DNA of 64,000 bases, taken from contig JAFXSS010000152.1 of the NCBI GenBank assembly GCA_017525455.1, positions 649-64,648 of the forward strand. Reading direction: 5' to 3'. The stretch comes from Paludibacteraceae bacterium (GTDB lineage: Bacteria; Bacteroidota; Bacteroidia; Bacteroidales; Paludibacteraceae). The position numbers were made by a program, and so were the translations under genes. Under the pieces are notes generated by a model. The model saw nothing but the letters and a program-made list of their open reading frames with translations, had not been told where the DNA came from and ran no database searches. Of the stretch, positions 11,074-26,347 are shown piece by piece. The number at the start of each line of letters is the position of its first letter. Positions within the stretch are counted from its first letter, which is position 1.

Positions 11074-11074
<1 letters not shown>
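10532..11074 (-). CDS. LOG family / TIGR00730 Rossmann-fold nucleotide-binding protein
   Basis: GGATGGLM and PGSYGTLDEMYD (PGGxGTxxE-like) motifs; 180 aa. Its ATG overlaps the gyrB stop (TAATG). Confidence 0.85.
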
Positions 11075-13164
<2,090 letters not shown>

Positions 13165-13243: not shown

Positions 13244-13251
13244 CAAAATTA
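13244..13251 (-). promoter_or_regulatory. -7 promoter box (TAatTTTG) upstream of gyrB
   Basis: CAAAATTA on the plus strand with a T-rich spacer. It implies a gyrB leader of roughly 115-120 nt. Confidence 0.45.
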
Positions 13252-13313
13252 CAAAAAAAAAATGACATTTGCAAGTTTTTTGTCATTTTTTTTTCACAGA
13301 TAGCAAAAATATA

Positions 13314-14381
13314 TTATTTTTGTCCGAGTCGGTTGAGGTGGCAGAGCATCAGGCTGCCGTCTTCCCGCCTGAGATGCATGCCGTTGCCTTCGCAGAAGTC
13401 GAAGGCTTTGCAGTCTTTGCACGGCTCCAATTTGCGCATCCAACTGCGGTCGCGATAGGGTTTGAATCCGTTCTCCCAGACCTGCCAGAACGAGTCTTTG
13501 TAAATATTTCCCTGATAGTACTTTCCGCGGATGCTTGTGCAGGCAGATATACTGCCGTCAATCAGTATCGATGCTACGCTTATACCCGCAGCGCACTGAT
13601 ATAGATGGTCGCGGACCTTTCCTTCGTAACTGCCCAGATAGCCTTCGCAGGAGTATGATACATGTCGTCCGGCCTCGCGTTCGGCAACTATGAAATCCAT
13701 CAGTTGCTTGAACTGCTCATCCGTCAGAATCAGTTCGGGGTTATCTGCAGCGCGACCCATGGGAGCGATGCCGAACACGCGCCAATCCCGCACTCCGAGG
13801 TTCCACAGCAACTCGCGGATAGCGGGTATATGATCTATTGTCCGCTGGTTGGCGCAAGTCACAACGTCCCATACCAACCCTTTCTCCGCGGCACAAAGTC
13901 TGATTGCCCTGCATGCGCCTTCGAAGGCCAGCGGGTGCTGGCGAAGCCATACATGATCTTCCTCCAGACCATCCAACGACACGGTGATTGATCGCAGTCC
14001 TGCTTTTCTAAGTTCGCGGAAGCGTGCTTCGGTCAGAGCCAAACCGTTGGTGACCATTCCCCACGGATAACCGCGGTCGTACAATGCCCGGCCTATTTGC
14101 GCCAGATCTTTGCGCATCAGCGGTTCGCCACCTGAGATGATGATAAGCACCTTGTGAGGATCGACATGAGGCGTAACCTCCGTGTCAATCACATGCAGGA
14201 AATCCTCCGCAAGCATATCGGGAGTCTGCACCGACGCTATGCAATCACTGCCGCAGTGCAGACAGTGGACATTGCAACGCAAGGTTGATTCCCAGAACAG
14301 TTGCTGCAGCGGATGCAACTCTTTCAGGTTCCTTCTGCGCCATTGTTCGAGGCGCAGTGCCAATCGTATTCTCAGGTTCAT
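13314..14381 (-). CDS. radical SAM protein with a SPASM/twitch-like Cys-rich C-terminal domain
   Basis: The radical SAM core shows in CNVHCLHC (Cx3Cx2C) and the GGEPLM glycine-rich SAM motif. The C-terminal Cys-rich region reads YSCEG...YQCAAG...ISACTS...EPCKDCKAFDFCEGNG...LCH. The start lies 3 nt after the stop of the upstream membrane protein. Confidence 0.85.
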   Translation of the reverse strand: MNLRIRLALRLEQWRRRNLKELHPLQQLFWESTLRCNVHCLHCGSDCIASVQTPDMLAEDFLHVIDTEVTPHVDPHKVLIIISGGEPLMRKDLAQIGRALYDRGYPWGMVTNGLALTEARFRELRKAGLRSITVSLDGLEEDHVWLRQHPLAFEGACRAIRLCAAEKGLVWDVVTCANQRTIDHIPAIRELLWNLGVRDWRVFGIAPMGRAADNPELILTDEQFKQLMDFIVAEREAGRHVSYSCEGYLGSYEGKVRDHLYQCAAGISVASILIDGSISACTSIRGKYYQGNIYKDSFWQVWENGFKPYRDRSWMRKLEPCKDCKAFDFCEGNGMHLRREDGSLMLCHLNRLGQK

Positions 14382-14384
14382 TGA

Positions 14385-15011
14385 TTAGAATCGTATAGTC
14401 ATTCCTACACCATTACCGGTCATACCGAGCGACATTTCCACATCGGTTTGCGGAGCCTGCGGCTGTTGCGGCATGAGGCATAGTTCGTTGTACGTATCAA
14501 CGCTCTTGCTCATCCGTTTGTAACCGACCGTCAGCAGCGGAACAGAACTGATCAGCGCCGCTCCTGCCAGAAAGCCCAGACCGAGGAATGTGCCGTTCTC
14601 TGCCACGAACTTCGGATCTGCAGGTTTCTCCGAATCAGCAACATCGGAAACCACGACACCTACGCCCGATACCAGCCATCCGATGAATGAGGTAGGTGCA
14701 CTTACCAGTCCGAAACCCAAGAGCACCCAGCCGGAGATCATACATTGCTGACCCTGCTTGTACTGTTGGTAAGCTTGCGGACATTCTTCATGAAGAAACT
14801 TCTTGTACGCCGAACCGTTCATCTGCAAATCGCCGCAGTAGTACTTGCCGCCGTCTTTGATAACCACCGACCGCTTTTGTTCCGGCTGTTGTACCGGTTC
14901 TTGCGATACCGTCTGCTCCTCGGTTGAGTTCAATTGTTGCGCCTGCATCGTTGTGCAGCAAGCCAACAAAAGTAATCCTGACAGCAGGAAAAGTTTTATA
15001 TTGTTTTTCAT
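14385..15011 (-). CDS. putative lipoprotein / two-TM membrane protein translationally coupled to the radical SAM gene
   Basis: MKNNIKLFLLSGLLLLAC lipobox-like signal, a Q-rich linker, a small Cys-containing ectodomain and two hydrophobic helices. The start was moved to the ATG at 15009-15011; the longer track ORF would overlap the serpin stop. Confidence 0.6.
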   Translation of the reverse strand: MKNNIKLFLLSGLLLLACCTTMQAQQLNSTEEQTVSQEPVQQPEQKRSVVIKDGGKYYCGDLQMNGSAYKKFLHEECPQAYQQYKQGQQCMISGWVLLGFGLVSAPTSFIGWLVSGVGVVVSDVADSEKPADPKFVAENGTFLGLGFLAGAALISSVPLLTVGYKRMSKSVDTYNELCLMPQQPQAPQTDVEMSLGMTGNGVGMTIRF

Positions 15012-15067
15012 TGTTATAGTGTTTTGCGGAAACAGCCACAAAAACCGTACCACAAAACGATCCGATA

Positions 15068-16336
15068 TTACTTCTCCCACGCCGGATGTCCGATGATAGC
15101 GGTGAAGAGAATCGTTCCGTAATCGCGCTCTCGGATGATCAGCACAAACGGCCGGTCTGCGATGAACTTGCGCCGATCCATCGGTTCGAATTCAGCATCT
15201 TTCGTCATACCTATCGTCACCGCTGCCGCTTCCGTGCCTTCTTCGTCGAACTGCATGAAGCAGTATTGCTTAATCAGGTTAACGAAAGTTGGTTGATTGC
15301 TCAGGTGCGAGAAATTTGCTCTGCTGCTGAACGCATCTTCCACTCCTAAGGCTTGCAGGTCGTCGTTCAGTTTGCGTTCGTACTTCAGCGCGAACTTGGG
15401 CAATGCCAGTTCTACCTCCGGTTGGAACATGTTTGCCAGCATCTCCTGCCATTGTTCAGCATCAAGTTCCTGCACCCATCTGCGGATATCTATACCCTCT
15501 GCCGGCAAGATAATATCTGCACAGTACTTACCGCCTTTGTACGGCAGTTCGAGCAACTGGTAATCATCATCCTCACCATACAGCATCTCGGCCGTACGAT
15601 GGAGCATGTTCGTCTGTATCTCATCACCGGCCAAGGTGGTGAACTTTTGAGGCTTGGTCAGTTCTTTCTTGAACTTATCCTGCCATTTTGCCTTGAAATA
15701 CAGGGCGTTGACCAGCGCCATTACAGTCTCGTCACTCACCATATCGCGAGTGATGATTTTCTTGATGAGATTGTTGGTATGCTGCGCTGCGAAGCGGTTG
15801 ATATCGTCAAGAACTTTCTGATCCGCGAAGGTCGGCACGTTCTTAGCCTCGGCATCGAAACTCCTTTTGCAAGCCTCTGTGTACTCAAGGAATATCGGGA
15901 ATCGCTCTGCCACCCATATACCATTAGCCAGTTTGACGTTTGTGTACTGATCCAATGCCGGCAAGACATCAATCAGTTGGCGATAGTACGCGTTGATCTC
16001 CGTTATCGGAGCATCGTCGTCAAACCCGAGCATCTCCCGAATCTGTTCGAGCGTCTCGCCGTCTGCACCATTCATCAGCATACCGAGCAGCATAGAGGCG
16101 GAAAGCGGCGAGAGGATAATATTCTCCTGCTGTTCGTCGGCCGCAGCCTGCGCCATCAAGTCGAAACTGAAATCGTTGCAGCCTTGCACCATTTCCTGCT
16201 CACTATAGGAGAACTGCAAGCGCTTGGGCTGCGAAACGCCGTTACCCGAACAGGACACAAACATGATCAAGCAAAACAGAATGGCGCACAATCCGAGCAC
16301 CACTCCACTGAACAGGATATTTCTCATTGTGTTCAT
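15068..16336 (-). CDS. serpin family lipoprotein (inhibitory-type hinge)
   Basis: The C-terminus reads EEGTEAAAVT (hinge) ...FIADRPFVLIIRE...ILFTAIIGHP (serpin signature). The N-terminal signal ends in a lipobox, FVSC. The start is ATG 16336 or 16327. Confidence 0.85.
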   Translation of the reverse strand: MNTMRNILFSGVVLGLCAILFCLIMFVSCSGNGVSQPKRLQFSYSEQEMVQGCNDFSFDLMAQAAADEQQENIILSPLSASMLLGMLMNGADGETLEQIREMLGFDDDAPITEINAYYRQLIDVLPALDQYTNVKLANGIWVAERFPIFLEYTEACKRSFDAEAKNVPTFADQKVLDDINRFAAQHTNNLIKKIITRDMVSDETVMALVNALYFKAKWQDKFKKELTKPQKFTTLAGDEIQTNMLHRTAEMLYGEDDDYQLLELPYKGGKYCADIILPAEGIDIRRWVQELDAEQWQEMLANMFQPEVELALPKFALKYERKLNDDLQALGVEDAFSSRANFSHLSNQPTFVNLIKQYCFMQFDEEGTEAAAVTIGMTKDAEFEPMDRRKFIADRPFVLIIRERDYGTILFTAIIGHPAWEK

Positions 16337-16435
16337 TTGTTTAACAATTGTGAGTAATCTATCTATCGTGTGAATATATACGCCCATCCTAAAGCAAACA
16401 TCCATGCTCCGGGATCGCCGTCTCGTAATTGTTGA

Positions 16436-17266
16436 TTACTGAGGAGTATGATACGAGAACCAGTTAGTAGTACGACTCTTCCCGGCGAACAGGCATGCAC
16501 ACCATTCGGTTGGTTCAGCGGGGTAGTCAACAGTTACCATACAACTACCCGGGCAGTGGTCCCCCATATTTGCTTCGCCACTAATGCATTTAGCAAACAA
16601 ATCTTCTGCATAACGTTCAATGCTTGTGTTTAACCGTTGGAGTTCGGCCGACGGACAACTGCAATAGAACAAATAATCTACTGCGAGGCTTGGAGATATT
16701 GATAGCTTGTCTGGTGACTTGTTTTTGTTAGGATTAAAGAATATTTTCACATCATTCATTATCTTTCCTTCTGCCGTTTTGAACGTGCAGACTGAAATCT
16801 TATCAGCATGGTAGTTATCGTCCGGATAGTATGCAAATGCCACATATTCTGTTTCTGGTGCGAGCGCATCCCATTCCGGCTCGCGAGATGTGCCCTTATA
16901 CAGAAAGTCTTCAATCTTTTCGGGTTCTTCCCATGGCTCTTCTCCGGGTTCCAATGGCTCCTCGTCATCACCATCATACGGATAGCCTTGATATATGTAA
17001 CGCAAATCAAATTCCCACTGGTGGTAATAGTATTCTCCGATAGTGTCTTTGAGTTCGGCAAAACGTTCGCAGGTCAAAACGTCCCAATAATAATACTTGT
17101 CGGCATACGCAGGTTCGACAGTGATGCTGACTTGCCGGTCTTGGATATTACTTACGGTAATACTAAAATCGGCATCTTTCACATTTTGTCTCGAGTTGCA
17201 ACCGGTTGTTAGGGTAACCAGTACGCTCGCTCCTATAGCAAGCAATATATATAAGATTCTTTTCAT
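16436..17266 (-). CDS. hypothetical lipoprotein (276 aa, acidic/aromatic-rich, Cys-rich C-terminal half)
   Basis: MKRILYILLAIGASVLVTLTTGC lipobox; no recognised domain. Confidence 0.6.
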   Translation of the reverse strand: MKRILYILLAIGASVLVTLTTGCNSRQNVKDADFSITVSNIQDRQVSITVEPAYADKYYYWDVLTCERFAELKDTIGEYYYHQWEFDLRYIYQGYPYDGDDEEPLEPGEEPWEEPEKIEDFLYKGTSREPEWDALAPETEYVAFAYYPDDNYHADKISVCTFKTAEGKIMNDVKIFFNPNKNKSPDKLSISPSLAVDYLFYCSCPSAELQRLNTSIERYAEDLFAKCISGEANMGDHCPGSCMVTVDYPAEPTEWCACLFAGKSRTTNWFSYHTPQ

Positions 17267-17284
17267 GATAATTGTTGACTATTT

Positions 17285-17503
17285 TCATAGTTCACTATCT
17301 TCAGCAGCTTCGCTTTCCGGCGTCTGTTCCCATTGCGCAGGGCGCACGCCGTACAGTGCTATGACATGCGGATCGTCAATAATGATCGGTTCCACGCCAT
17401 AATCCGTTGCGAACTGTTCGCAACTCGTCAGCGTTGTTCCTGCCAATCCGACAATCACAGCCCCGAGCGCAGCGTTGATGCGTTTCAATACTTTCTTGCG
17501 CAT
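17285..17503 (-). CDS. mini-lipoprotein (72 aa) with two YGVxP motifs and an acidic tail
   Basis: MRKKVLKRINAALGAVIVGLAGTTLTSC | EQFATDYGVEPIIIDDPHVIALYGVRPAQWEQTPESEAAEDSEL. It starts 1 nt after the upstream stop. Paralogous to 21560-21760. Confidence 0.6.
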   Translation of the reverse strand: MRKKVLKRINAALGAVIVGLAGTTLTSCEQFATDYGVEPIIIDDPHVIALYGVRPAQWEQTPESEAAEDSEL

Positions 17504-17504
17504 G

Positions 17505-17906
17505 TTATTCAGTTTTATTTTTTATCATGACAAATACGATTTCGTCTGCCGGGAAGGCACAATCCTTTTCCGGCACGAATCCGGTACCGCATTCAAACAT
17601 ATATCTGGGTGAGATAGACTGTTTCTGATATGCTCCTTTCTGATCAATCGCCGTTACGGTTACATGCGGAATAGGATAGGGCACGTCCTTTATTCGCGAA
17701 TAGAAATAGCCATTTTCGTCGGTACTGACGACGCTCGGGAAACGTACGCCTTCTACTGTTATTTCAATTGCTATACCTTGCAAAAACTCTTCATTCTCAT
17801 TCTGCACAGTGCCATACGTGCTAATGCTAGTCGTATGCATGTGCTTGCAGCCGACCAATACGCTCATTCCTATCATGAGCAGTATAAGTGATATGTATTT
17901 CTTCAT
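17505..17906 (-). CDS. lipoprotein, diverged carboxypeptidase-regulatory-like (CarboxypepD_reg) fold
   Basis: MKKYISLILLMIGMSVLVGC lipobox. ...STYGTVQNENEEFLQGIAIEITVEG...DENGYFY matches the G-x-V-x-D/N...P-L-x-G-[IV] pattern of the neighbouring paralogs. Confidence 0.6.
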   Translation of the reverse strand: MKKYISLILLMIGMSVLVGCKHMHTTSISTYGTVQNENEEFLQGIAIEITVEGVRFPSVVSTDENGYFYSRIKDVPYPIPHVTVTAIDQKGAYQKQSISPRYMFECGTGFVPEKDCAFPADEIVFVMIKNKTE

Positions 17907-17973
17907 AATTGTTGGTGGTATTTGACAATTAATTAGAATCTCACGCTCGGCCATTGTTGACCGATTCTCCCCG

Positions 17974-18411
17974 TTACTTCTTCTTCAGTTGAAAATCCTG
18001 ATGTACATAGCCGGCACCTTGATTCCAATTATCGCCCCATGCCACTTTGCTGCGATCGTAATCCACTTTTACACTCACGGAGTCCGATGCATATACGCCT
18101 GTCGTGTCGGTCACAATAATATCCAAGGAATCCGCAGGGAAGAGACCGTATGGGCCGACTTTATATGTTCCGTCATCGGCGGTATAAACATCGGACATAG
18201 TTCCGCGGTAATCGAGATTCGGACGATACCTGTCTTTGAACGTAACCCGTATGTTCTCTAACGGTTTGTTCTCCTCGTTGGTTATTGTACCTGTCGCCTC
18301 AAACGTCGCGTGAGGCGTTCCGTATTCGCAACGGAAACATCCATTAAGCCCTAATATGCCTAGCAGCAAAGCAATCAACGCATTGATGCCGGTTAACACT
18401 TTCCTTTTCAT
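17974..18411 (-). CDS. lipoprotein with a CarboxypepD_reg-like domain; resembles the family named 'radical SAM-associated putative lipoprotein'
   Basis: MKRKVLTGINALIALLLGILGLNGC FRC EYGTPHATFEATGTITNEENKPLENIRVTF... It is a paralog of 21779-22231. The start was moved to the ATG at 18409-18411, downstream of the promoter box. Confidence 0.7.
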   Translation of the reverse strand: MKRKVLTGINALIALLLGILGLNGCFRCEYGTPHATFEATGTITNEENKPLENIRVTFKDRYRPNLDYRGTMSDVYTADDGTYKVGPYGLFPADSLDIIVTDTTGVYASDSVSVKVDYDRSKVAWGDNWNQGAGYVHQDFQLKKK

Positions 18412-18459
18412 ATCGATGATTTTTTTAGTGGTTATTTGCCATGTTTCGGAAATCGACTG

Positions 18460-18467
18460 CAAAATTA
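18460..18467 (-). promoter_or_regulatory. -7 promoter box (TAatTTTG) of cassette A
   Basis: CAAAATTA on the plus strand, with a -33-like TTTGCATAT 15 nt upstream on the minus strand. Confidence 0.5.
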
Positions 18468-18482
18468 CAACAAATTTCCGAT

Positions 18483-18587
18483 ATATGCAAATAATTTTGT
18501 GGATTTGAATTTTCGCTTAAATGATTGTTTTTCAGCAAAAAGTCATTTCGAGCGTGTGGAAATGTGACAAAATCGGTTATTTAGGGA
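18483..18587 (-). repeat. conserved upstream element, copy A (105 bp)
   Basis: Base-by-base comparison with 22291-22395 gives 2 mismatches in 105 bp (18494 and 18508). It starts 15 nt upstream of the -7 box, the same offset as the other copies. Confidence 0.9.
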
Positions 18588-18602
18588 AGAAATCCGGCAT
18601 GT

Positions 18603-19985
18603 TTATTCCCTCTCTGCGTGCGCCCGTCTGCTCCGCACACACTGCTCTGCCAGGGGGTAATACTTCGTTCCCTCAAACATCCGAAGCATCATTTCGTCTC
18701 TGTCAGCTTCTGTTTGTTCCCGTCTTTCCGGTGCATCGTAGCCCTGTCTGTTTGTCTTTTCAGACCAACTATATATTACTTCCCCTTTCAGATTGATATA
18801 CTTATATACATTCAGTCGGGGATTCTCAGTGTCAACAACCAAGCATAACTCGTTGTGTACGCCGGAACTAATGAGGCTTGCGGGCATCTTATCCCATGTG
18901 TCCATTGACAGCACCACTTCCCCTTGCAGGTTGATTATACAATATAAGTTTACATCTACTTCAGTGGATTTGATGCTCATCGTGGTTGATTTCCATACCC
19001 ATGCATACTCTCCATAAAACGGGTCTGCGTATGCGTATTGATAGGGGATCTGCACTATGCCGTTCTTGTCGATATAGCCATATAATCCTTGGTTGTTACG
19101 CACCGGCATAAGGCCTCCGTCGCCGAAGAAGTTTTCTCCTCCAAGATATATGTTCTGTTCGGTTATTATGTTTCCTTGCGTATCCATTAGTCCGGCGTAC
19201 GTCCAATCACTATCCTTCAATTTATAGAGCAACCTGTCATTTCCAACCGACTGCAAATATGGGTATATGGTGTCTATCACCAATTCGCCCTTGGTGTTGA
19301 TTGCACCGTAGACGTAATAACTTTGTGATTCGTCGGACCAACTTTTGTCAACTACCGCTATGCCGTCGCAGAAATCATACAACTTCCAGTATCTTTCTCC
19401 ATCTACGCCGTTGATATAACTGGAGATTGCTATTTCTCCTTTTTTGTTGTAGTACCCGAAGATGGATGCTGCCAATCCGTCTTTTGTCATCGGTCCTAAT
19501 GGCGTAATGAGGCCATTATCCATAGGCGCAAGAATGGTGCTGAAATGATTGTCCATTATGCCGGTTTTGCGCATGTCGCCGTATCTGCAGCAACCGTAGT
19601 AAAAGTAATGGTCCAAGAATCCCTGACCTTCCGGAAGGGTGTAAACGACTTCACCTTTCTTGTTGATGAATGCGTGTTGGGGGCCAAGGGTGGGCACTTG
19701 GTATCCGGTGCTACGTAAAGGCTCACCGTCAACATCAATATACACCTGAGCCACGCCACCCGAGAATCCGTACGTCCGGTCATATTTCGCAGGAATGACC
19801 ATTTCGCCTTTTTCGTTGATGAAGCCCCAGTAACCCGTGCTGTCTGCCGCCGGCCACAGCATGGTGGTATCTTCTTCCGGAGTCTGCGAGAAAGGTTCGT
19901 TACAGCCGGTCAGTATTCCTGCCAATCCGACAATCACTGCCCCGAGCGCAGCGTTGATGCGTTTGAGAATTCGTTTTTTCATCAT
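18603..19985 (-). CDS. WG (KWG-type) repeat-containing lipoprotein
   Basis: MMKKRILKRINAALGAVIVGLAGILTGC lipobox. It has at least 7 repeats of the YGFI[ND]xKGExVIP type (YWGFINEKGEMVIP, YGYIDKNGIVQIP, YKYINLKGEVIY ...). Its start overlaps the upstream stop (ATGATGA). Confidence 0.8.
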   Translation of the reverse strand: MMKKRILKRINAALGAVIVGLAGILTGCNEPFSQTPEEDTTMLWPAADSTGYWGFINEKGEMVIPAKYDRTYGFSGGVAQVYIDVDGEPLRSTGYQVPTLGPQHAFINKKGEVVYTLPEGQGFLDHYFYYGCCRYGDMRKTGIMDNHFSTILAPMDNGLITPLGPMTKDGLAASIFGYYNKKGEIAISSYINGVDGERYWKLYDFCDGIAVVDKSWSDESQSYYVYGAINTKGELVIDTIYPYLQSVGNDRLLYKLKDSDWTYAGLMDTQGNIITEQNIYLGGENFFGDGGLMPVRNNQGLYGYIDKNGIVQIPYQYAYADPFYGEYAWVWKSTTMSIKSTEVDVNLYCIINLQGEVVLSMDTWDKMPASLISSGVHNELCLVVDTENPRLNVYKYINLKGEVIYSWSEKTNRQGYDAPERREQTEADRDEMMLRMFEGTKYYPLAEQCVRSRRAHAERE

Positions 19986-20365
19986 TCGACTTTTGTCTTT
20001 GATACTACTTTTACTAACTCGTACCATTGGTTCCGAAAGTCAGTAGGGGGATTCTTGTATGAGCTCTCTTTCACAATCAGTTTGCACTCGTATCCTTCCT
20101 CAAACACGAAACCTTCGATGGCCATTCCTTGTATGTTCGGGTCGGTGGAGAATAGTTGTATTGTTCCGTCATCTTCCCATCGTCCGCGGTATATCGGAAC
20201 GAGGGTCGGTTCCGGAGACATCGGCCATGCATTTATCTCCATCTCCGTGAGTGTAGGTTCGGTGATGAGTGCTCTCGTCTTGCTATTGACACCACCGTTT
20301 TCACATGCTGCCAACCCGATGCCCAGCACTATCAGAGCAATGATGAAGAAAATAACCTTTTTCAT
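19982..20365 (-). CDS. small lipoprotein, DUF4377-like
   Basis: MKKVIFFIIALIVLGIGLAAC lipobox. The GFVFEEGYECKLIVKE...NPPTD...YELVKVVSKTK pattern is recalled from DUF4377 proteins; this was not verified. Confidence 0.55.
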   Translation of the reverse strand: MKKVIFFIIALIVLGIGLAACENGGVNSKTRALITEPTLTEMEINAWPMSPEPTLVPIYRGRWEDDGTIQLFSTDPNIQGMAIEGFVFEEGYECKLIVKESSYKNPPTDFRNQWYELVKVVSKTKVE

Positions 20366-20369
20366 ATAC

Positions 20370-20846
20370 CTATTGCTGATTGTTGACCGACAAATTGAGT
20401 TTTTTCAAACCCTGATAGTACCCCACAGGCCCCTCGTCGCCACCGTATGACTCGAACTCCCACTCCATGTAATCTTTTGTAAGTTTGTGGATGGTAATCG
20501 GCGAGCACCCTCCATCCAAGTTCCGCTTCTTATCGTAGTACCCTTCTACAGTCATCAGCCATTTGCCGTTGTCTTGCTGTCGCAGGGTATATGGCCCGGG
20601 AAGATAGTATCCTGTCGGCGATACGGGCTGCATGAATTTTTCGTCAAAAACGAGTGTCATGTCATTATTCACTTGGCGAGTGAATATTCCGCCAAACCCG
20701 TCGCCGTTGGCAACTGTTTCTTTTTCCACTTTCCATTGTCCGATGAGCAGTTTCTGTACGTCTTCTTTCTGCTCCGGCAAATTCTGCCTGCAATTTGCCA
20801 TCAAGGTTATCACCATCAACAGCAATAACATGTGATTCATTTTCAT
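20370..20846 (-). CDS. lipocalin-like domain lipoprotein
   Basis: LMANC lipobox. The LIGQWKV...IHKLTKDYMEWEF pattern is typical of Bacteroidales lipocalin-like domains. Confidence 0.55.
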   Translation of the reverse strand: MKMNHMLLLLMVITLMANCRQNLPEQKEDVQKLLIGQWKVEKETVANGDGFGGIFTRQVNNDMTLVFDEKFMQPVSPTGYYLPGPYTLRQQDNGKWLMTVEGYYDKKRNLDGGCSPITIHKLTKDYMEWEFESYGGDEGPVGYYQGLKKLNLSVNNQQ

Positions 20847-20880
20847 AACGCGAATGAGTTTATCTCTTTAAGTTTCTGTT

Positions 20881-21537
20881 CTACGGGCGGAAACCTATAC
20901 CTATTCGCAGTACGGAAGACGAGCCGATGTTTGTTTCCACGAGTCCGAACACGCGTTCGTTGCCGAAGTTCAATCCTATAGGTGTCATGTTAGCGGCAGG
21001 CAGGTAGAAACCCTCGACCGCACCGCTGGCGTACTGTGAAATATGCATGCCTACGCCTACAGACAATCCGGAATACAAGCGTACATGCTCGCGATTGATG
21101 TAGGTAAAATCCACGCGTGCCACAACACTGACATCATGCGTGCGGTAGTTTCCCGCCCAGCACTCGTAGTTGACGCTTGCGCCCAGCCGGAGCCAGCGCA
21201 GGATGTTATAACCATAATCAATTGCCCAAGCGCCTGTAAAGATGTCTGAGCGCGCCGAACCGCTTGAAGATCCCGGCGCAGGGATGTAGAAATTCCACGA
21301 GTGACTGCCGAACGCCGTGGAGTAGACACTGGGCAGACCGACAGAAAGCGATACGCTCTGCCGATGTTCGCGCCAGTCGTATCCTTTGCGTACGGGCATC
21401 GGAGCGGGAGTCTCTTTGCGAACTACAACAACGGTCTGCGGTGCTTGCTCCTGCGGACCGATTTCAGTTTGCACCTCTTGTGCGGACATGCCTGCCGTGC
21501 ACAGCAGCAGACAGATTGCAATCATTGACTTTTTCAT
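20881..21537 (-). CDS. putative outer-membrane beta-barrel protein
   Basis: Signal peptide ...CTAGMSA|QE, followed by alternating hydrophobic beta-strand patterning that ends ...LRIGIGFRP. Confidence 0.5.
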   Translation of the reverse strand: MKKSMIAICLLLCTAGMSAQEVQTEIGPQEQAPQTVVVVRKETPAPMPVRKGYDWREHRQSVSLSVGLPSVYSTAFGSHSWNFYIPAPGSSSGSARSDIFTGAWAIDYGYNILRWLRLGASVNYECWAGNYRTHDVSVVARVDFTYINREHVRLYSGLSVGVGMHISQYASGAVEGFYLPAANMTPIGLNFGNERVFGLVETNIGSSSVLRIGIGFRP

Positions 21538-21559
21538 ACGTTTGTCCTCCATATGATTT

Positions 21560-21760
21560 TCATTGTTCGCAATCCTCAACACTCTCCCAAGTGGTAGGTG
21601 TCACGCCATACATCGGTTTCAATCCCGGGTCATCCAGATCCCCCTGATATATCGGCGGTACGCCATACTCAACCGTACACCCCGTAAGAGCAGACCCGGT
21701 CAATCCGACAATCATTGCCCCTAGAGCGATGTTGAGATGTTTGAGTAGCGATTTTTTCAT
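21560..21760 (-). CDS. mini-lipoprotein (66 aa) with two YGVxP motifs and an acidic tail
   Basis: MKKSLLKHLNIALGAMIVGLTGSALTGC | TVEYGVPPIYQGDLDDPGLKPMYGVTPTTWESVEDCEQ. Paralog of 17285-17503. Confidence 0.6.
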   Translation of the reverse strand: MKKSLLKHLNIALGAMIVGLTGSALTGCTVEYGVPPIYQGDLDDPGLKPMYGVTPTTWESVEDCEQ

Positions 21761-21778
21761 TGTACCATATTTTTGCGT

Positions 21779-22231
21779 TTAATCATTATCGGCTTTTTTG
21801 CCAAGCACAAAGTCCTGTTGCACTTCGGCCTTACCGCAATTCCAGTGATCCTGCTTCGATACGCCGCTACGGTCGAACTCCAGTCCTCCTACATTGACCG
21901 AATCGGATTCATATACGCCAGCGGTGTCGCGAACGATGATTTCAAACGAGTCTCTCCAAGGATGGGTTTGGGTTCGCCACGCATATTGTCCATCCGAATT
22001 GGTAGAGCAAACGACATAGCCTAAAGAGCCATTCTCTCTATCCCATCTGTCTCTAACAGCCACTTGGATATTCTCCAACGGTTGCTCCTGCTCATCGGTT
22101 ACGGTACCGGACATTTCAAACGTTGCATACGGCGAGCCATACTCGCTATAACCTATGTGGCAACTGACACCCAGCAACCCCATCAGCGTCGCTATCAGGG
22201 CATTGATACCTGCCAAAATACTCTTTTTCAT
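21779..22231 (-). CDS. lipoprotein with a CarboxypepD_reg-like domain (paralog of 17974-18411)
   Basis: MKKSILAGINALIATLMGLLGVSC HIGYS EYGSPYATFEMSGTVTDEQEQPLENIQVAV... The start was moved to the ATG at 22229-22231. Confidence 0.7.
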   Translation of the reverse strand: MKKSILAGINALIATLMGLLGVSCHIGYSEYGSPYATFEMSGTVTDEQEQPLENIQVAVRDRWDRENGSLGYVVCSTNSDGQYAWRTQTHPWRDSFEIIVRDTAGVYESDSVNVGGLEFDRSGVSKQDHWNCGKAEVQQDFVLGKKADND

Positions 22232-22267
22232 ACTTGTAAATGTTAAGTTGTTTTTAAATTGCGAGTG

Positions 22268-22275
22268 CAAAGGTA
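22268..22275 (-). promoter_or_regulatory. -7 promoter box (TAccTTTG) of cassette B
   Basis: CAAAGGTA on the plus strand, with a -33-like TTTGCATAT 15 nt upstream. Confidence 0.55.
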
Positions 22276-22290
22276 CAACAATTATTTCAA

Positions 22291-22395
22291 ATATGCAAAT
22301 ATTTTTGTGGATTTGTATTTTCGCTTAAATGATTGTTTTTCAGCAAAAAGTCATTTCGAGCGTGTGGAAATGTGACAAAATCGGTTATTTAGGGA
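22291..22395 (-). repeat. conserved upstream element, copy B (105 bp)
   Basis: Near-identical to 18483-18587 (2 mismatches). Confidence 0.9.
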
Positions 22396-22657
22396 CCAAA
22401 TTGTCATCCCAATTCACCTCCGAGGCATTGCTGTTTTGCGTGCTGTGCGCATCTTGGTTGTCAATAATTCGCAAGGCATTGGGATCCGGACGTCCTCCTC
22501 CGTTGCCTTTTGGGTTATCACCTTTTCCGCTTGGAGGATTCATGTCATTTTTACCAGCCATACAGCTCACCATAACTACCATCACGGCGCTAAGAAATGC
22601 AACCTTACACAAGCGGAAGGCTATATGGTCAAACTTGATAGTATCTGATTGTGCCAT
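22385..22657 (-). CDS. small G/P/N-rich lipoprotein (90 aa)
   Basis: ...AFLSAVMVVMVSC lipobox, then a low-complexity stretch GKNDMNPPSGKGDNPKGNGGGRPDPN. Its stop codon (TAA, 22385-22387) lies inside repeat copy B. Confidence 0.45.
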   Translation of the reverse strand: MAQSDTIKFDHIAFRLCKVAFLSAVMVVMVSCMAGKNDMNPPSGKGDNPKGNGGGRPDPNALRIIDNQDAHSTQNSNASEVNWDDNLVPK

Positions 22658-22725
22658 TGTCTGCTTTCGTTATACATTTGCCTATGAATGCCGGCGTCTA
22701 CTTGGATACCGGTATTTTGTTTATA

Positions 22726-24198
22726 TCAATTCAGTTCCCCCGTCATCAGCCTGATCATTTGCTGCTTCAGTTCACGGGAGTTCGTGCCGAGTTTGTTAGC
22801 CGTGTGCTGCTTGAAGTTACGTATACCGCTCTGTCCGTAATGCAGCAGTGCCGCCAGTTGCTTGCTGTCGAAGCAATCCATCATCACCAGCACGCAGAGC
22901 CTGAGTTCTTTGTCCGTCAGGTCACCTTTGGCTTTCAGTTTGTCAGCCAGCATGAAGAACTGCCTGTTCACGACAGCGCAAAACTGCTCATAATCTTTCC
23001 AGCACAACGTCTGCTTCCAGTCGTCGGCACGCAGCAGCGTTTCGATGTTCTTCGCCACCTCTTGCTCTATTTTCACCCGTCGGTCGTCAAACTGCTGCTG
23101 CAGTTGGGCATTCTGCTTCTGGCGTGCATGTATGAACGCCTGCGCCCGTTGTTTCTCGTGCGCAATCTCAGCCATCGAACGCTGGTGCTGCCTGCGGATG
23201 TTATACCACCACGCGAGCAACGCCACTATCAGACAAAGCACTCCCGCCAGCAGCAATCCCCATCTGCGCGGCGGTGTATTCATATCCTGCTCCAGCAGTT
23301 CGACCGCATGCGACAGGTCTCCCTGGTCATTGGCAATCACACGCAGCACCGCAGCACGTTCTGCCGCCGCCGCGCGCACATCCTCGAGTTGAGCCGTGCT
23401 GTCCTGCTGGGTAAGTATGTACAATGCATTGGCTCGCAGGAAAAGATGATCGGTAGCCTGCAGCACCTGACGGGCATAATATGTAGCCGAGTCATACTGA
23501 ACCAGATACGAATAACATTGCCCCTTGATCATCATCAGCGACGGCGCTGCCGCCTGCTCGCCTTCAACCATATTCGCATACTGCAAGCCACGGGTGTAAT
23601 CACCTGCACGCATATATGCTTCAGCATAAGTCTCGTAGCACATGGCCAACAACAGTGAATCTGTTACCGATTGAATGACAGGCTCCAGCAATGCCCGCAC
23701 ACCGGCCGTATCGCTCTGCTCAGCCAGGGCGTAGGCCATATTGGTCAGACCAATGCGGTAACGCATAGAGTCACCGGCCTGCAAAAACGCCTGCGTCGAG
23801 CGCTCGTACATAGTGCAGGCCAATGAGTAGTTACTCTCCATTCGGCAGATATAAGCGATATTGCTGTACACGCGTCCAAGCAACTCCTGATCATTCGTGC
23901 GTGCAGCACGCGCGTATAATAGATAAGGCATAGCCTCGGAGTAACTCCTATTGATGCGCAACAGCCGTCCGTAGAAGAAACAGGCCTTGGCGTAAGACGT
24001 AGGCATCAATACGCGCCAAGGCGACAATGCATGCACAGCCTGATGCAAAGCCTCGGCATCGTCAAACACCTGGTCAGCCTGCAGCAAACTGTCGGCCTGA
24101 GCAACCGTGGCGCGAGCCTCATGCACCGAACGGCACGAAGTCATGGCAAACGCAAAAGCGCAGAGCAAAAGCAATACTATGTACAGGCGTTTTTTCAT
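22726..24198 (-). CDS. one-component transmembrane regulator: signal/lipobox, TPR-like ectodomain, single TM, coiled coil, C-terminal LuxR-like HTH
   Basis: MKKRLYIVLLLLCAFAFAMTSC signal. TPR-like repeats follow (YSEAMPYLLYA, YSLACTMYERS, YAEAYMRAGDY ...). The TM segment is WGLLLAGVLCLIVALLAWW. The C-terminus reads LTDKELRLCVLVMMDCFDSKQLAALLHYGQSGIRNFKQHTANKLG. The start was moved to the ATG at 24196-24198, downstream of the promoter box. Confidence 0.7.
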   Translation of the reverse strand: MKKRLYIVLLLLCAFAFAMTSCRSVHEARATVAQADSLLQADQVFDDAEALHQAVHALSPWRVLMPTSYAKACFFYGRLLRINRSYSEAMPYLLYARAARTNDQELLGRVYSNIAYICRMESNYSLACTMYERSTQAFLQAGDSMRYRIGLTNMAYALAEQSDTAGVRALLEPVIQSVTDSLLLAMCYETYAEAYMRAGDYTRGLQYANMVEGEQAAAPSLMMIKGQCYSYLVQYDSATYYARQVLQATDHLFLRANALYILTQQDSTAQLEDVRAAAAERAAVLRVIANDQGDLSHAVELLEQDMNTPPRRWGLLLAGVLCLIVALLAWWYNIRRQHQRSMAEIAHEKQRAQAFIHARQKQNAQLQQQFDDRRVKIEQEVAKNIETLLRADDWKQTLCWKDYEQFCAVVNRQFFMLADKLKAKGDLTDKELRLCVLVMMDCFDSKQLAALLHYGQSGIRNFKQHTANKLGTNSRELKQQMIRLMTGELN

Positions 24199-24229
24199 CC
24201 GCGGCAAACACAAGTAAAAATCGAGACTG

Positions 24230-24237
24230 CAAAGATA
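24230..24237 (-). promoter_or_regulatory. -7 promoter box (TAtcTTTG) of the regulator gene
   Basis: CAAAGATA on the plus strand, with -33-like TTTGCATAT at the same 15 nt offset as in cassettes A and B. Confidence 0.55.
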
Positions 24238-24252
24238 CGAAAAAAAAATGAT

Positions 24253-24345
24253 ATATGCAAATTTTTTTGTGGAAATTTCACTTTGCATAAACTGCTGTTT
24301 ATCAGCGCAAAAAGCATTCCTGCCTGTGGAAAAGTGATTTTACCT
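24253..24345 (-). repeat. conserved upstream element, diverged copy C
   Basis: It aligns to copies A and B with many substitutions and one 2 nt indel. It keeps ATATGCAAAT, TTTTGTGGA, TCAGC..AAAAAG and TGTGGAAA.GTGA, and the two TGTGG cores are 57 bp apart as in copy B. Confidence 0.6.
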
Positions 24346-24455
24346 GCACATTTTTTCGCGCTGTTGGAGTTTAGTCAAAGTGCGCTTGCGGAAAAAAAAT
24401 ACACCTTCGCGCAATTTTTCTGCAAGAAAGTTTGCAAATGTGCATTTTTTTTTGT

Positions 24456-24463
24456 ACCTTTGT
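24456..24463 (+). promoter_or_regulatory. -7 promoter box (TAccTTTG) for typA
   Basis: ttgTACCTTTGtagg, about 88 nt upstream of the typA ATG, with a T-rich spacer and TTTGCAAAT upstream. Confidence 0.55.
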
Positions 24464-24550: not shown

Positions 24551-26347
24551 ATGCAAAAAATCAGAAACATTGCAATCATTGCCCACGTGGATCACGGCAA
24601 GACCACACTCGTCGACAAGATGCTGTACACATCGAACCTGTTCCGCGACAATCAGGACAAAGGCGAACTTATCCTTGACAATAACGACCTTGAGCGCGAG
24701 CGTGGCATAACGATTCTCGCCAAGAACGTAGCCATTGAGTACAAGGGCTACAAGATTAACATCATCGACACCCCGGGTCACGCGGATTTCGGCGGTGAGG
24801 TGGAGCGTGTGCTGAACATGGCCGACGGCGTGCTGCTGCTGGTTGATGCGTTCGAGGGACCGATGCCGCAAACACGATTCGTGCTGCAGAAAGCCATCGA
24901 ACTAAACTTAAAGCCTATCGTGGTTATTAATAAAGTGGACAAGCTCAACTGTCGTCCGGATGAGGTGCAGGAGGCCGTATTTGACCTGATGTGCAACCTC
25001 AACGCTTCGGAAGATCAGTTGGATTTCCAGACGATATACGGTTCGGCCAAGAACGGTTGGATGAGTACCGACTGGCATCAGCCTACAAAAGATATAACCG
25101 CCCTGATGGATGCCATCATCGAGTATATACCCGAGCCCGAAGTGCTGGAGGGTACGCCGCAGATGCTTATCACATCGCTGGACTACAATCCGTACGTGGG
25201 ACGTATTGCCGTGGGACGCGTGCATCGCGGTGTGTTGAAGGACGGCATGGCTGTCACACTGACAAAAAAAGACGGCACAAAAGTTCGCACGAAGATCAAG
25301 GAACTTCACACCTTCCAAGGCATGGGACATGTCAAGACCGACGAAGTACGTTCGGGTGACATATGCGCATTGATCGGCATCGACGGCTTTGAAATCGGTG
25401 ACACCATCTGTGACGCCGAGAACCCCGAGGCTCTGGATCCGATTGCTATCGACGAGCCGACCATGTCAATGACCTTTACCATCAACGACAGCCCGTTCTT
25501 CGGACAGGACGGCAAGTTTTTACCCTCTCGTCATATTCAAGAACGTCTGACCAAGGAACTGGAGAAGAACCTTGCCCTGCGCGTTGAGGCCAGCGACCGC
25601 GAGTCGGCATGGAACGTGTACGGCCGCGGCATGCTGCATCTGTCGGTACTCATCGAGACCATGCGTCGCGAAGGCTACGAACTGCAGGTTGGTCAACCCA
25701 AAGTTATCATCAAGGAGATTGACGGCGTTAAGTGCGAGCCGGTTGAGCAGTTAACAGTTAACACGCCGGAGGATTGTTCCGGTAAGATTATCGAGTTTGT
25801 GACTGTTCACAAAGGTGAAATGACAAAGATGGAACTTGTGAACGACCGTGTACAGCTGGAGTTTGTCATACCCTCGCGCGGGATTATGGGTATGCGTACG
25901 TACGTGATGAACGTCAGCGCCGGTGAGGCGATCATGGCACACCGATTCCTGGAGTACCAGCCGTACAAAGGCGAAATGCCGCACCGCGTCAACGGTTCGC
26001 TCATCGCCATGGAAGCCGGAACAGCCTCGGCTTATGCGCTCGACAAACTCCAAGACCGCGGACGATTCTTCATCGACCCGCAGGAAGAAGTGTATGCCGG
26101 ACAGGTGGTTGGCGAGAATGCCAAGGAAGGTGACATCGTTATCAACGTAACGAAAGCCAAGAACCTGACAAACATGCGTACCAAATCATCGGACGACAAG
26201 GCTGTGCTTGCTCCGCCCGTACGGTTCTCGCTGGAGGAGGCACTCGAATATATCAAGGAGGATGAGTACGTAGAGGTTACACCTCACGCTATGCGTATAC
26301 GCAAAATCATCTTGGATGAACTGGAGCGCAAACGCGCCAACAGATAG
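24551..26347 (+). CDS. typA: translational GTPase TypA/BipA
   Basis: IRNIAIIAHVDHGKTTLVDKML, DTPGHADFGGEVER and NKVDK G-motifs; 598 aa. Confidence 0.97.
   Translation: MQKIRNIAIIAHVDHGKTTLVDKMLYTSNLFRDNQDKGELILDNNDLERERGITILAKNVAIEYKGYKINIIDTPGHADFGGEVERVLNMADGVLLLVDAFEGPMPQTRFVLQKAIELNLKPIVVINKVDKLNCRPDEVQEAVFDLMCNLNASEDQLDFQTIYGSAKNGWMSTDWHQPTKDITALMDAIIEYIPEPEVLEGTPQMLITSLDYNPYVGRIAVGRVHRGVLKDGMAVTLTKKDGTKVRTKIKELHTFQGMGHVKTDEVRSGDICALIGIDGFEIGDTICDAENPEALDPIAIDEPTMSMTFTINDSPFFGQDGKFLPSRHIQERLTKELEKNLALRVEASDRESAWNVYGRGMLHLSVLIETMRREGYELQVGQPKVIIKEIDGVKCEPVEQLTVNTPEDCSGKIIEFVTVHKGEMTKMELVNDRVQLEFVIPSRGIMGMRTYVMNVSAGEAIMAHRFLEYQPYKGEMPHRVNGSLIAMEAGTASAYALDKLQDRGRFFIDPQEEVYAGQVVGENAKEGDIVINVTKAKNLTNMRTKSSDDKAVLAPPVRFSLEEALEYIKEDEYVEVTPHAMRIRKIILDELERKRANR

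Follow-up and report, generated by a model that had tools for sequence, protein, structure and literature searches.

A conserved radical SAM enzyme and candidate Tyr-Gly lipoprotein substrates in a Paludibacteraceae gene island

The stretch of DNA analysed here (the window) comprises 64,000 nucleotides from a Paludibacteraceae bacterium (GenBank assembly GCA_017525455.1, contig JAFXSS010000152.1, positions 649 to 64,648). It contains an island of 15 minus-strand open reading frames (ORFs; 13314-24345) flanked by gyrB (11074-13119, -) and typA (24551-26347, +). One of these genes encodes a radical S-adenosylmethionine (rSAM)/SPASM enzyme, and four encode lipoproteins which share a special signal peptide and Tyr-Gly motifs. 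The enzyme and such lipoproteins recur together in related genomes. It is fairly probable that the recurrent unit is a maturase resembling those of ribosomally synthesised peptides that are post-translationally modified (RiPPs), together with Tyr-Gly lipoprotein precursors; this estimate applies to the reading as a whole and not to any specific chemistry. The island itself is an ordinary chromosomal accretion of lipoprotein genes around this conserved, catalogued maturation system.

By family score, the enzyme and two CarboxypepD_reg-like lipoproteins are the curated pair TIGR04133/TIGR04134, the 'rSAM/lipoprotein system', whose members are classed as hypothetical equivalogs. The pair has been an orphan system for over a decade. 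An earlier interpretation made from the letters alone (the sequence-only reading) knew of no described function for this combination of genes; the pair was in fact already curated in NCBIfam/TIGRFAM, although its function is still unassigned. A literature search found no paper on the pair, the one mention being in an unrelated review of the type IX secretion system. The present analysis provides a concrete candidate target for the pair, X-Tyr-Gly-[V/I/P]-Pro just past the lipid-anchor Cys, and adds an unannotated family of mini-lipoproteins as its commonest partner.

The enzyme and its candidate substrates

The enzyme and the lipoproteins which carry the motif are encoded as follows.

13314-14381, minus strand: radical SAM/SPASM enzyme, TIGR04133 (NCBIfam), 355 aa, with Pfam Radical_SAM and SPASM domains
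17285-17503, minus strand: mini-lipoprotein, 72 aa, special signal, family hidden Markov model (HMM) E=8e-21, 47% identical to its 66-aa paralogue
17974-18411, minus strand: TIGR04134 ('radical SAM-associated putative lipoprotein') lipoprotein A, 145 aa, 89.2 bits (cut-off 39.8)
21560-21760, minus strand: mini-lipoprotein, 66 aa, special signal MKKSLLKHLNIALGAMIVGLTGSALTGC, family HMM E=2e-20
21779-22231, minus strand: TIGR04134 lipoprotein B, 150 aa, 92.3 bits (cut-off 39.8), 48% identical to A

The enzyme scores 522.1 bits against TIGR04133 (cut-off 425), with residues 3-352 aligned to positions 1-349 of the 350 in the model. Its CxxxCxxC motif is formed by C36/C40/C43, and its SPASM cysteines are C245, C263, C281, C321, C324, C330 and C347; none of these varies among 17 homologues. 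No RiPP recognition element (RRE) domain precedes the rSAM core, the domain starting at about residue 28. The protein is deposited as MBR4521351.1, 'TIGR04133 family radical SAM/SPASM protein', in the Prokaryotic Genome Annotation Pipeline (PGAP) annotation of a Paludibacteraceae metagenome-assembled genome (MAG), and its Joint Genome Institute (JGI) product name is 'radical SAM enzyme (rSAM/lipoprotein system)'. An AlphaFold2 (AF2) model of the enzyme made with 17 close homologues is poor (predicted local distance difference test, pLDDT, 55).

The four lipoproteins are candidate substrates: the two mini-lipoproteins have two motifs each and the two TIGR04134 lipoproteins have one each. The 66-aa protein carries EYG (21662-21670) and MYG (21605-21613); the 72-aa protein carries DYG (17396-17404) and LYG (17348-17356). 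Neither mini-lipoprotein matches a Pfam or NCBIfam family, and both are 'hypothetical' in the deposited annotation. Lipoprotein A consists of the special signal, Cys25, EYG-T-P (18319-18327) and a transthyretin-like beta-sandwich, in that order; lipoprotein B has the same order, with Cys24 and EYG-S-P (22136-22144) ahead of its beta-sandwich. The AF2 model of lipoprotein A (pLDDT 81) predicts a helix at residues 2-20, a disordered tether containing the YG at 21-33, and the beta-sandwich at 34-136. The only matches in a fold search with this model were generic transthyretin-like sandwiches (intradiol dioxygenases, carboxypeptidase regulatory domains, CnaB), which offer no clue to function.

The match to the curated system is close. 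The enzyme and both lipoproteins exceed the curated cut-offs and lie in the same operon context in a MAG which is already so annotated, and the genes are directly adjacent in many relatives as well as beside a 52%-identical orthologue. The mini-lipoproteins set the present system apart, as no curated model covers them. Members of this family were collected with iterated HMMs built from the 66-aa and 72-aa proteins of the window.

The shared module begins with a signal of consensus MKKK-L-R-N--LG----L-GC, in which the Asn is near-invariant (position 10 in 61 of 71 signals), and continues with one to five copies of X-Tyr-Gly-[V/I/P]-Pro. The body of the mini-lipoproteins is Pro/Glu-rich, and outside the YG motifs the mature parts align poorly. 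YG occurs 122 times in 52 mature peptides, compared with 9.2 +/- 2.9 times in composition-preserving shuffles, and 75% of all Tyr residues in these peptides belong to YG. At position -1, K (64), L (35), M (12) and E (9) account for most of the 122 motifs, and K, L and M together for about 90%. Position +2 is mostly V, P or I, but T, A, C and S also occur; position +3 is P in 82 motifs. TIGR04134 proteins with the special signal have one or two motifs directly past the lipobox Cys, and the Cys, Y, G and P are invariant across 29 database-wide TIGR04134 homologues. CarboxypepD_reg-like lipoproteins with ordinary signals do not have the motif. YG lies no more than 20 residues from the lipobox Cys in 65 of 85 module proteins versus 4 of 163 other lipobox ORFs. 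A short adjacent precursor gene with a variable body and a conserved signal region and motifs is what is expected of a RiPP-like precursor and its maturase. As far as we found, the combination of the X-Tyr-Gly motif and the signal module is undescribed.

The special signal is found in just five ORFs of the window, all within the island. The fifth belongs to a protein which is variable cargo.

18603-19985, minus strand: WG-repeat lipoprotein (WG_beta_rep), special signal, no YG near the N-terminus

Over 65 nt, the DNA encoding its signal shares 83% identity with the 72-aa gene (17439-17503). In locus L005, the orthologue (L005:4542-5915) has an ordinary signal, MNAKFSHPFRLALLATAATLSAALLTGC, ahead of an identical mature start, NEPFSQTPEEDTT; NEPFSQ is common to the two mature proteins. 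It looks like the WG-repeat lipoprotein of the window acquired its mini-type signal by a recent recombination swap.

A second family of small lipoproteins was seen in related loci but is absent from the window. Its signal is of another type and highly conserved, MR..IDK.L..GIKLC.LTGVAFTFAAC, and Y[G/A]P[A/P]P follows directly past the lipobox Cys. It comprises 25 ORFs in 22 species loci (for example L027:4644-4844, L078:9610-9831 and L080:1380-1607). These genes usually adjoin a mini-lipoprotein gene or sit directly upstream of the rSAM gene.

Conservation across relatives and beyond the family

One genome per species was scanned. A relative was found in 368 species, and the best 80 loci were kept with flanks of +/-10 kb. 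Except for a few records whose titles are evidently wrong, these are apparently from Paludibacteraceae-like gut or rumen genomes. Across the best 80 of the 368 species loci the enzyme is 79-93% identical, while nearly all of its neighbours change. For comparison, gyrB is 91-96% identical, the adjacent LOG-family gene 58-88%, and a 435-aa protein 39-80%.

Adjacency could be counted in 78 of the 80 loci. A module gene ends no more than 300 nt upstream of the enzyme gene, on the same strand, in 56 of them. A module gene is present anywhere in the flank in 65, and in 69 if the second small family is counted. Judged by gene neighbourhood, the mini-lipoprotein is the commonest partner of the enzyme in Paludibacteraceae. 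In many species the whole system consists of one mini-lipoprotein gene and the enzyme gene among housekeeping genes. The sequence-only reading had asked if the rSAM gene, the mini-lipoproteins and the CarboxypepD_reg-like lipoproteins co-occur across relatives; they do. In the MAG RUG14367 there are two TIGR04133 loci (L015 and L030), 86% and 84% identical to the window enzyme. Each locus encodes module-bearing lipoproteins of its own, so one genome can hold the system twice.

Searching 5.8 billion proteins with a mini-lipoprotein profile gave 226 clusters, every one unnamed or 'hypothetical'. They have no Pfam domain, and where a source is named it is always Paludibacteraceae. When eight of the genes were sampled, Radical_SAM plus SPASM was encoded immediately downstream of six.

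Enzymes of this type extend further. A search of 1.84 billion representatives returned 290 relatives of the enzyme at E<=1e-30, and TIGR04133 is the best family for all ten which were sampled, down to 31% identity. A single-sequence search with a TIGR04134 protein gave only 31 unnamed matches, so the breadth outside Paludibacteraceae rests on three distant contexts.

52%-identical enzyme: overlapping upstream TIGR04134-like lipoprotein, ...RWYNAVLTALLTLLGYGC-SSSSDDSDVE-MYG-V...
39%-identical homologue: upstream lipoprotein, ...TLSGC-PGPVM-KYG-PGP...
44%-identical enzyme: multi-peptide RiPP cluster, AT-rich, which also encodes a second SPASM enzyme; DF-YG-C in the abutting peptide

The presence of the motif beside the 52%- and 39%-identical enzymes shows that a Tyr-Gly site next to the enzyme persists far beyond the bacterial family. 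The third context shows that the TIGR04133-like enzyme family is also found in classical RiPP settings. There, the enzyme scores 457 bits against TIGR04133 in a context without lipoproteins (L097:887-1443, L098:1209-1498), and the cluster encodes several Cys/Asp-rich peptides with a common (V/I)SEL(I/V)FL leader.

The enzyme might instead act on a small molecule or cofactor, as AhbD, NirJ and BlsE do, with a lipoprotein linkage which is regulatory or coincidental. Its best match in the PDB is BlsE, a small-molecule decarboxylase, AhbD and NirJ are among its nearest named families, and it is nearly as conserved as gyrB, which is housekeeping-like. However, ORFs with the YG motif stay adjacent to it although every other neighbour is exchanged, and they do so down to an enzyme identity of 39%; no biosynthetic partner genes are conserved nearby. 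Action on a small molecule is thus judged quite improbable.

Some observations weigh against a maturase with Tyr-Gly lipoprotein precursors. Nine of the 78 loci have no candidate substrate in the flank. In the window, the enzyme gene lies apart from the candidate substrate genes, which are 2.9-7.4 kb upstream; the TIGR04134 genes, on the same strand, are 3.6 and 7.4 kb away. Among the sampled mini-lipoprotein genes, one is an orphan (L093) and another (L086:4001-4267) has no adjacent enzyme in otherwise conserved synteny. The order shared by L086 and L087 (L087:4001-5313) is 5'-nucleotidase-C lipoprotein, mini-lipoprotein, [rSAM], Peptidase_S66, adh_short, aminotransferase and Ldh. L086 has kept the mini-lipoprotein gene, which overlaps the gene that follows, but has no rSAM gene; the enzyme appears to have been lost naturally there. 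The signal is only modestly more conserved than the mature part, with pairwise identities of 0.57 vs 0.40 in the mini-lipoproteins and 0.54 vs 0.47 in the TIGR04134 proteins. The second small family sometimes has YAP in place of YG. The nearest PDB relatives of the enzyme by sequence are BlsE and PqqE. Finally, Pro at +3 is strongly conserved, and the enzyme scores poorly against the model taken to represent the spliceases, which are discussed below.

Candidate chemistry of the Tyr-Gly site

Given the recurrent adjacency of enzyme and motif, it is quite likely that the enzyme modifies the Tyr-Gly site. The cytoplasmic enzyme would act on this site in the lipoprotein precursor, and the helical signal peptide may serve as leader or activator; the helix is predicted by the AF2 model of lipoprotein A. 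The product would then be exported by Sec, lipidated and cleaved at the lipobox. The outcome would be a membrane-anchored modified peptide or protein.

By analogy, splicease-type excision of tyramine is the chemistry which we favour, although tentatively. Spliceases are rSAM/SPASM enzymes which excise tyramine at XYG (natively MYG or LYG) in peptides and proteins, often at several sites; binary systems use a helical leader as activator, and the products are alpha-keto-beta-amino acids, which are ketoamide protease-inhibitor pharmacophores (PMC11414181, PMC11626197, PMC9811515, PMC11002830). The system described here is like the spliceotide systems of PlpX, PcpX, RhaX and RcsX in its rSAM and SPASM domains and in an X-Tyr-Gly motif with Met and Leu among the X residues; it also has several sites per precursor, and both whole-protein action and binary systems with a helical leader and no Y protein are known among spliceotides (PMC11414181, PMC11626197, PMC9811515). 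No conserved small partner gene which could be a Y-protein candidate was found in the 80 loci.

There are also differences from spliceotides. The precursors here are lipoproteins, the 'leader' is a Sec/lipoprotein signal, and Pro is conserved at +3. To our knowledge, Pro at +3 has not been described as a splicease requirement. The enzyme falls below the cut-off of TIGR04103, which we take to be the PlpX splicease family (IPR026482), and it is no closer to that family than to other SPASM families: it scores 118 bits (cut-off 725), on par with TIGR03913, AhbD, NirJ and MftC. As far as tested, namely by its TIGR04103 score, the enzyme does not appear to be a member of the characterised PlpX-type family. 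A literature search found no paper mentioning TIGR04103 or TIGR03913. The system is not filed as a spliceotide, because the TIGR04103 score is far below the cut-off, Pro +3 is conserved and YAP variants exist. This family may already be listed by Scott et al. (2022, Chem; cited in PMC10849128), who surveyed 189 genera for YG-rich neighbours of rSAM-SPASM enzymes.

The same Tyr-Gly lipoproteins could be subject to a different chemistry. Candidates are a Tyr C-C or C-O crosslink (a triceptide-like cyclophane or a PqqE-like link), a Cys thioether, epimerisation and hydroxylation. By NCBIfam score the enzyme is equally close to several SPASM families of differing chemistry, Cys occurs at -2 in 13 of 122 motifs, and Pro +3 with the Y-G-[V/I/P] triplet could define a ring-forming site. 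The neighbours of the 44%-identical homologue include Cys/Asp-rich peptides of a kind typical for thioether RiPPs. However, most motifs do not contain Cys, and no RRE domain lies ahead of the rSAM core. The middle Gly also never changes, and the third residue can be V, P, I, T, A, C or S; this is the opposite of the aromatic-X-X motifs of cyclophanes. On balance, such a chemistry is considered unlikely.

Two other systems bear a partial likeness. The anaerobic sulfatase-maturating enzyme (anSME) is a cytoplasmic rSAM/SPASM enzyme which modifies a short motif in a protein later exported by Sec, including lipoprotein and periplasmic sulfatases of Bacteroides. The present system resembles it in having a cytoplasmic rSAM/SPASM enzyme, a short motif and a subsequently exported protein. 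It differs in that anSME converts C/S-x-P-x-R to formylglycine, and the island encodes no sulfatase; no anSME family is found among the best 25 of 64 NCBIfam matches of the enzyme. The RiPPs with Sec signals (bufferins and chryseobasin-type peptides) have precursors with an export signal instead of, or besides, a classical leader, and the mini-lipoprotein signal weakly matches a chryseobasin-related precursor model in the signal region (E=0.004). In those systems the enzymes are multinuclear non-haem iron-dependent oxidases (MNIO/DUF692), unlike the rSAM enzyme here, and here the signal is a lipoprotein signal; the product would therefore stay membrane-anchored.

If tyramine excision is correct, membrane-anchored envelope proteins of abundant rumen and gut Bacteroidales would join the soluble RiPPs as carriers of backbone beta-amino acids and ketoamides. 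It would also mean that a signal peptide can act as a RiPP leader. Such a finding would suggest a new strategy of envelope protection or protease inhibition, and protein engineering could gain a compact tool consisting of a single enzyme. If the chemistry differs, the system would still represent a new post-translational modification of bacterial lipoproteins.

A more elaborate proposal is that the lipoprotein signal serves as leader, a near-housekeeping enzyme splices tyramine from K/L/M-Tyr-Gly in the mini-lipoproteins and in the TIGR04134 tethers, and the envelope carries anchored ketoamide (alpha-keto-beta-amino acid) warheads. Being lipid-anchored, these might inhibit trypsin-like or other Ser/Cys proteases, or they might be tethers which resist proteases, and they would be the first lipoprotein spliceotides. 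The operon of the enzyme also includes, in this genome, a serpin lipoprotein, but the serpin is not conserved with the system. The proposal as a whole is regarded as doubtful.

Transcription units, regulator and variable cargo

The sequence-only reading divided the island into three transcription units, each preceded by the same upstream element, with a regulator encoded at the island head. All of this agrees with the present results: one Bacteroidetes-type promoter heads each unit, two copies of the element are 91% identical and the third is diverged, and the regulator is a 490-aa protein.

18454-18593, minus strand: upstream element and unit A promoter (TCCACA box, about 50 nt, TCCACAA box, then promoter)
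22262-22401, minus strand: upstream element and unit B promoter, 91% identical over 140 nt to 18454-18593
24230-24345, minus strand: diverged third element copy and promoter (24261-24230), upstream of the regulator gene; composite match at 24330
22726-24198, minus strand: one-component transmembrane regulator, 490 aa, with lipoprotein signal, TPR region, transmembrane (TM) segment and LuxR/GerE-type helix-turn-helix (HTH)

The promoter pattern TTTG-N17-23-TAnnTTTG occurs 10 times in the window, compared with 0.9 expected. The minus strand of the island has exactly three copies, each 30-60 nt ahead of a unit. In the unit A promoter (18491-18460) the -33 element is TTTG and the -7 element is TAATTTTG. 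A scan for sigma-70 promoters and terminators gave counts equal to those in shuffles, and thus no signal.

The third copy of the element corresponds to the part upstream of the promoter. Its local alignment score is 25, versus no more than 15.5 elsewhere in the window and 9.2 +/- 1.5 in shuffles. The window has three copies of the composite of TCCACA, about 50 nt, TCCACAA and promoter, and the 1.4 Mb of related loci have it only in the two closest relatives. Measured from the sequences, the TCCACA boxes lie about 15-90 nt upstream of the -33 element, which is where an activator would bind. L004 and L005 retain the boxes although the intervening sequence has diverged. The 91% identity of the window copies is therefore probably due to recent gene conversion, and the boxes would be the constrained part. 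The 140-nt repeat was also considered as an RNA element and this was rejected, as it has no Rfam match and lies upstream of the promoter. An apparent inverted repeat around the island (13244-13281, - and 24427-24463, +; arms 81% complementary) does not mark an element boundary. It consists of the outward-facing promoters of gyrB and typA, both of which fit the Bacteroidetes -33/-7 consensus.

The regulator had been described as a TPR-TM-HTH protein. The TPR region is weak (TPR_12, E=6e-4), and one TM segment is seen by eye at about residues 318-340. The HTH was not detected by Pfam hmmscan, but comparison of the C-terminus of the regulator family with GerE (hhalign, with a manually typed GerE sequence) gave a probability of 92.8% and E=4e-7 over 49 aligned columns. 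Like the SusR-like or LuxR/GerE one-component regulators of Bacteroidetes, the protein has an exported TPR-like N-terminal sensor region, one TM segment and a C-terminal HTH, and its gene adjoins the genes it presumably controls. Unlike the loci of SusR-like regulators, the island has no SusC/SusD or glycan-utilisation genes, and the Pfam SusR_C match is only faint. The regulator probably drives all three units via the shared TCCACA-box element, as suggested by the arrangement of boxes and promoters, and the copy at 24230-24345 is a candidate autoregulation site. The regulator is annotated 'hypothetical' in the deposited MAG. Homologues (strong matches, E<=5e-41) are present within about 22 of the 80 rSAM loci.

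In every such locus which was fully read, two genes follow that of the regulator: one for a conserved ~172-aa protein bearing the motif PMDGPTGSTPDPTDPNQF(R/A)(A/V)SL and one for a CarboxypepD_reg-like lipoprotein with an ordinary signal. Examples of the 172-aa protein are found in L062 (9028-9546), L065, L066, L068, L072 and L073. Neither it nor that CarboxypepD_reg-like lipoprotein is present in the window.

The remaining genes of the island encode the following proteins.

14385-15011, minus strand: membrane protein, unit A variable cargo
15068-16327, minus strand: serpin lipoprotein (Serpin, 325 bits), unit A variable cargo
16436-17266, minus strand: 276-aa lipoprotein, unit A variable cargo
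17505-17906, minus strand: CarboxypepD_reg-like lipoprotein, 133 aa, ordinary signal, locus-derived family HMM E=7e-23
19982-20365, minus strand: DUF4377 lipoprotein (family match), unit B variable cargo
20370-20846, minus strand: 158-aa lipoprotein, no family match at E<=1, unit B variable cargo
20881-21537, minus strand: putative outer membrane protein (OMP), type I signal, weak family matches, unit B variable cargo
22385-22657, minus strand: 90-aa lipoprotein downstream of the regulator, no family, lineage-specific

Much of the previous description of these genes is borne out. The ORF list contains the 15 minus-strand genes between gyrB and typA, and the intergenic gaps, computed with the signal-peptide Met taken as each start, are a 4-nt overlap and then 1, 3, 4, 18, 18, 22, 34, 56, 67 and ~99-108 nt. 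Read directly, the N-termini of the cassette proteins have a lipobox Cys in 11 cases and a type I signal in one (20881-21537); only the rSAM enzyme is cytoplasmic. The signals end in a lipobox of the form [LVI][ASTG][GAS]C, with LTGC, LTSC, LNGC and GVSC read directly; lipidation is predicted. Pfam and NCBIfam support the assignment of Radical_SAM plus SPASM, Serpin, WG_beta_rep and DUF4377, and CarboxypepD_reg matches on three proteins, though weakly. The beta-barrel proposed for the OMP has only matches of E ~5e-4 and ~4e-3, and the lipocalin-like assignment of the 158-aa protein found no support. The 'two paralogous cassettes' are paralogous in their head gene (48% amino acid identity), mini-lipoprotein (47%) and upstream element; the remaining cassette genes are unrelated. 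In the 133-aa lipoprotein, TYG lies 11-13 residues past the Cys and is not followed by Pro. This protein has no NCBIfam match, hence it is not a TIGR04134 member; a homologue with 58% identity is present in L050.

It had also been proposed that all 15 genes form one regulated surface-remodelling system. The single strand, the short gaps, the three promoters with a common upstream element and the export of nearly all products are consistent with this, and L004-L006 keep many of the same families beside the enzyme. However, among the 80 loci, the serpin, WG-repeat, DUF4377, OMP, 276-aa, membrane and 90-aa genes have clear homologues beside the enzyme only in L004-L006, the three closest relatives. 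Homologues of unit A cargo with at least 45% identity, and of unit B cargo with at least 65%, are confined to these loci; the exceptions are weaker or partial matches. The membrane protein has 27-28% matches in L024 and L061, the OMP has 27-32% matches in L010 and L082, and the 158-aa protein is matched at 45-49% in L039 and L068 and by a 30-residue fragment in L072. The 90-aa lipoprotein has homologues in L004 and L005 only (48% and 29% identity). Even among L004-L006, cargo genes are reordered, duplicated or missing, and many species have just a mini-lipoprotein gene and the enzyme gene among housekeeping genes.

Since clear homologues of the cargo genes are, with few exceptions, confined to L004-L006, these genes are not part of the recurrent system, and a single system of 15 genes is improbable. 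On this distribution, the other nine lipoprotein and membrane genes would be lineage-specific cargo which has gathered in the same operons. Cargo outside the system thus makes up most of the 11 kb, and readings that treat the island as a unit call for caution. The residues after the lipobox Cys, judged by eye, mostly do not include the acidic surface-export signal known from Bacteroidetes, and surface remodelling is a conjecture.

It is very improbable that the region is a horizontally acquired mobile or defence island. Gene content does vary between close relatives, and GC content is slightly lower in the middle of the region (0.44-0.48). However, overall GC equals that of the flanks (0.487 vs 0.49 and 0.516), and L004-L006 share the junction on the gyrB side. 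At the regulator end in L005 there is an M13 peptidase and a 120-aa ORF (Dabb-like by eye) instead of typA. The island contains no tRNA and no Rfam family. A mobile element was rejected, as had been concluded earlier, on the absence from the region of an integrase or transposase domain, tRNA, a flanking att-like repeat and a compositional shift. A defence island was also rejected: when 10 of the 15 island proteins were scanned with PADLOC, the rSAM enzyme showed only generic similarity to viperins (pVip; 53 bits vs 522 for TIGR04133), and the other nine had no match.

Two further observations concern neighbouring genes. The 435-aa protein (9212-10519, -), whose gene lies downstream of gyrB and the LOG-family gene, matches no Pfam family at E<=0.01; its synteny is conserved in L004-L006 and L024. 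In L006 (2398-3418), an 88% relative, two genes are inserted between the serpin and rSAM genes. One encodes a 204-aa protein with the N-terminus CPLRCKYCINPQ, which by eye is like a radical SAM activating enzyme, and the other encodes a 133-aa Cys-rich protein.

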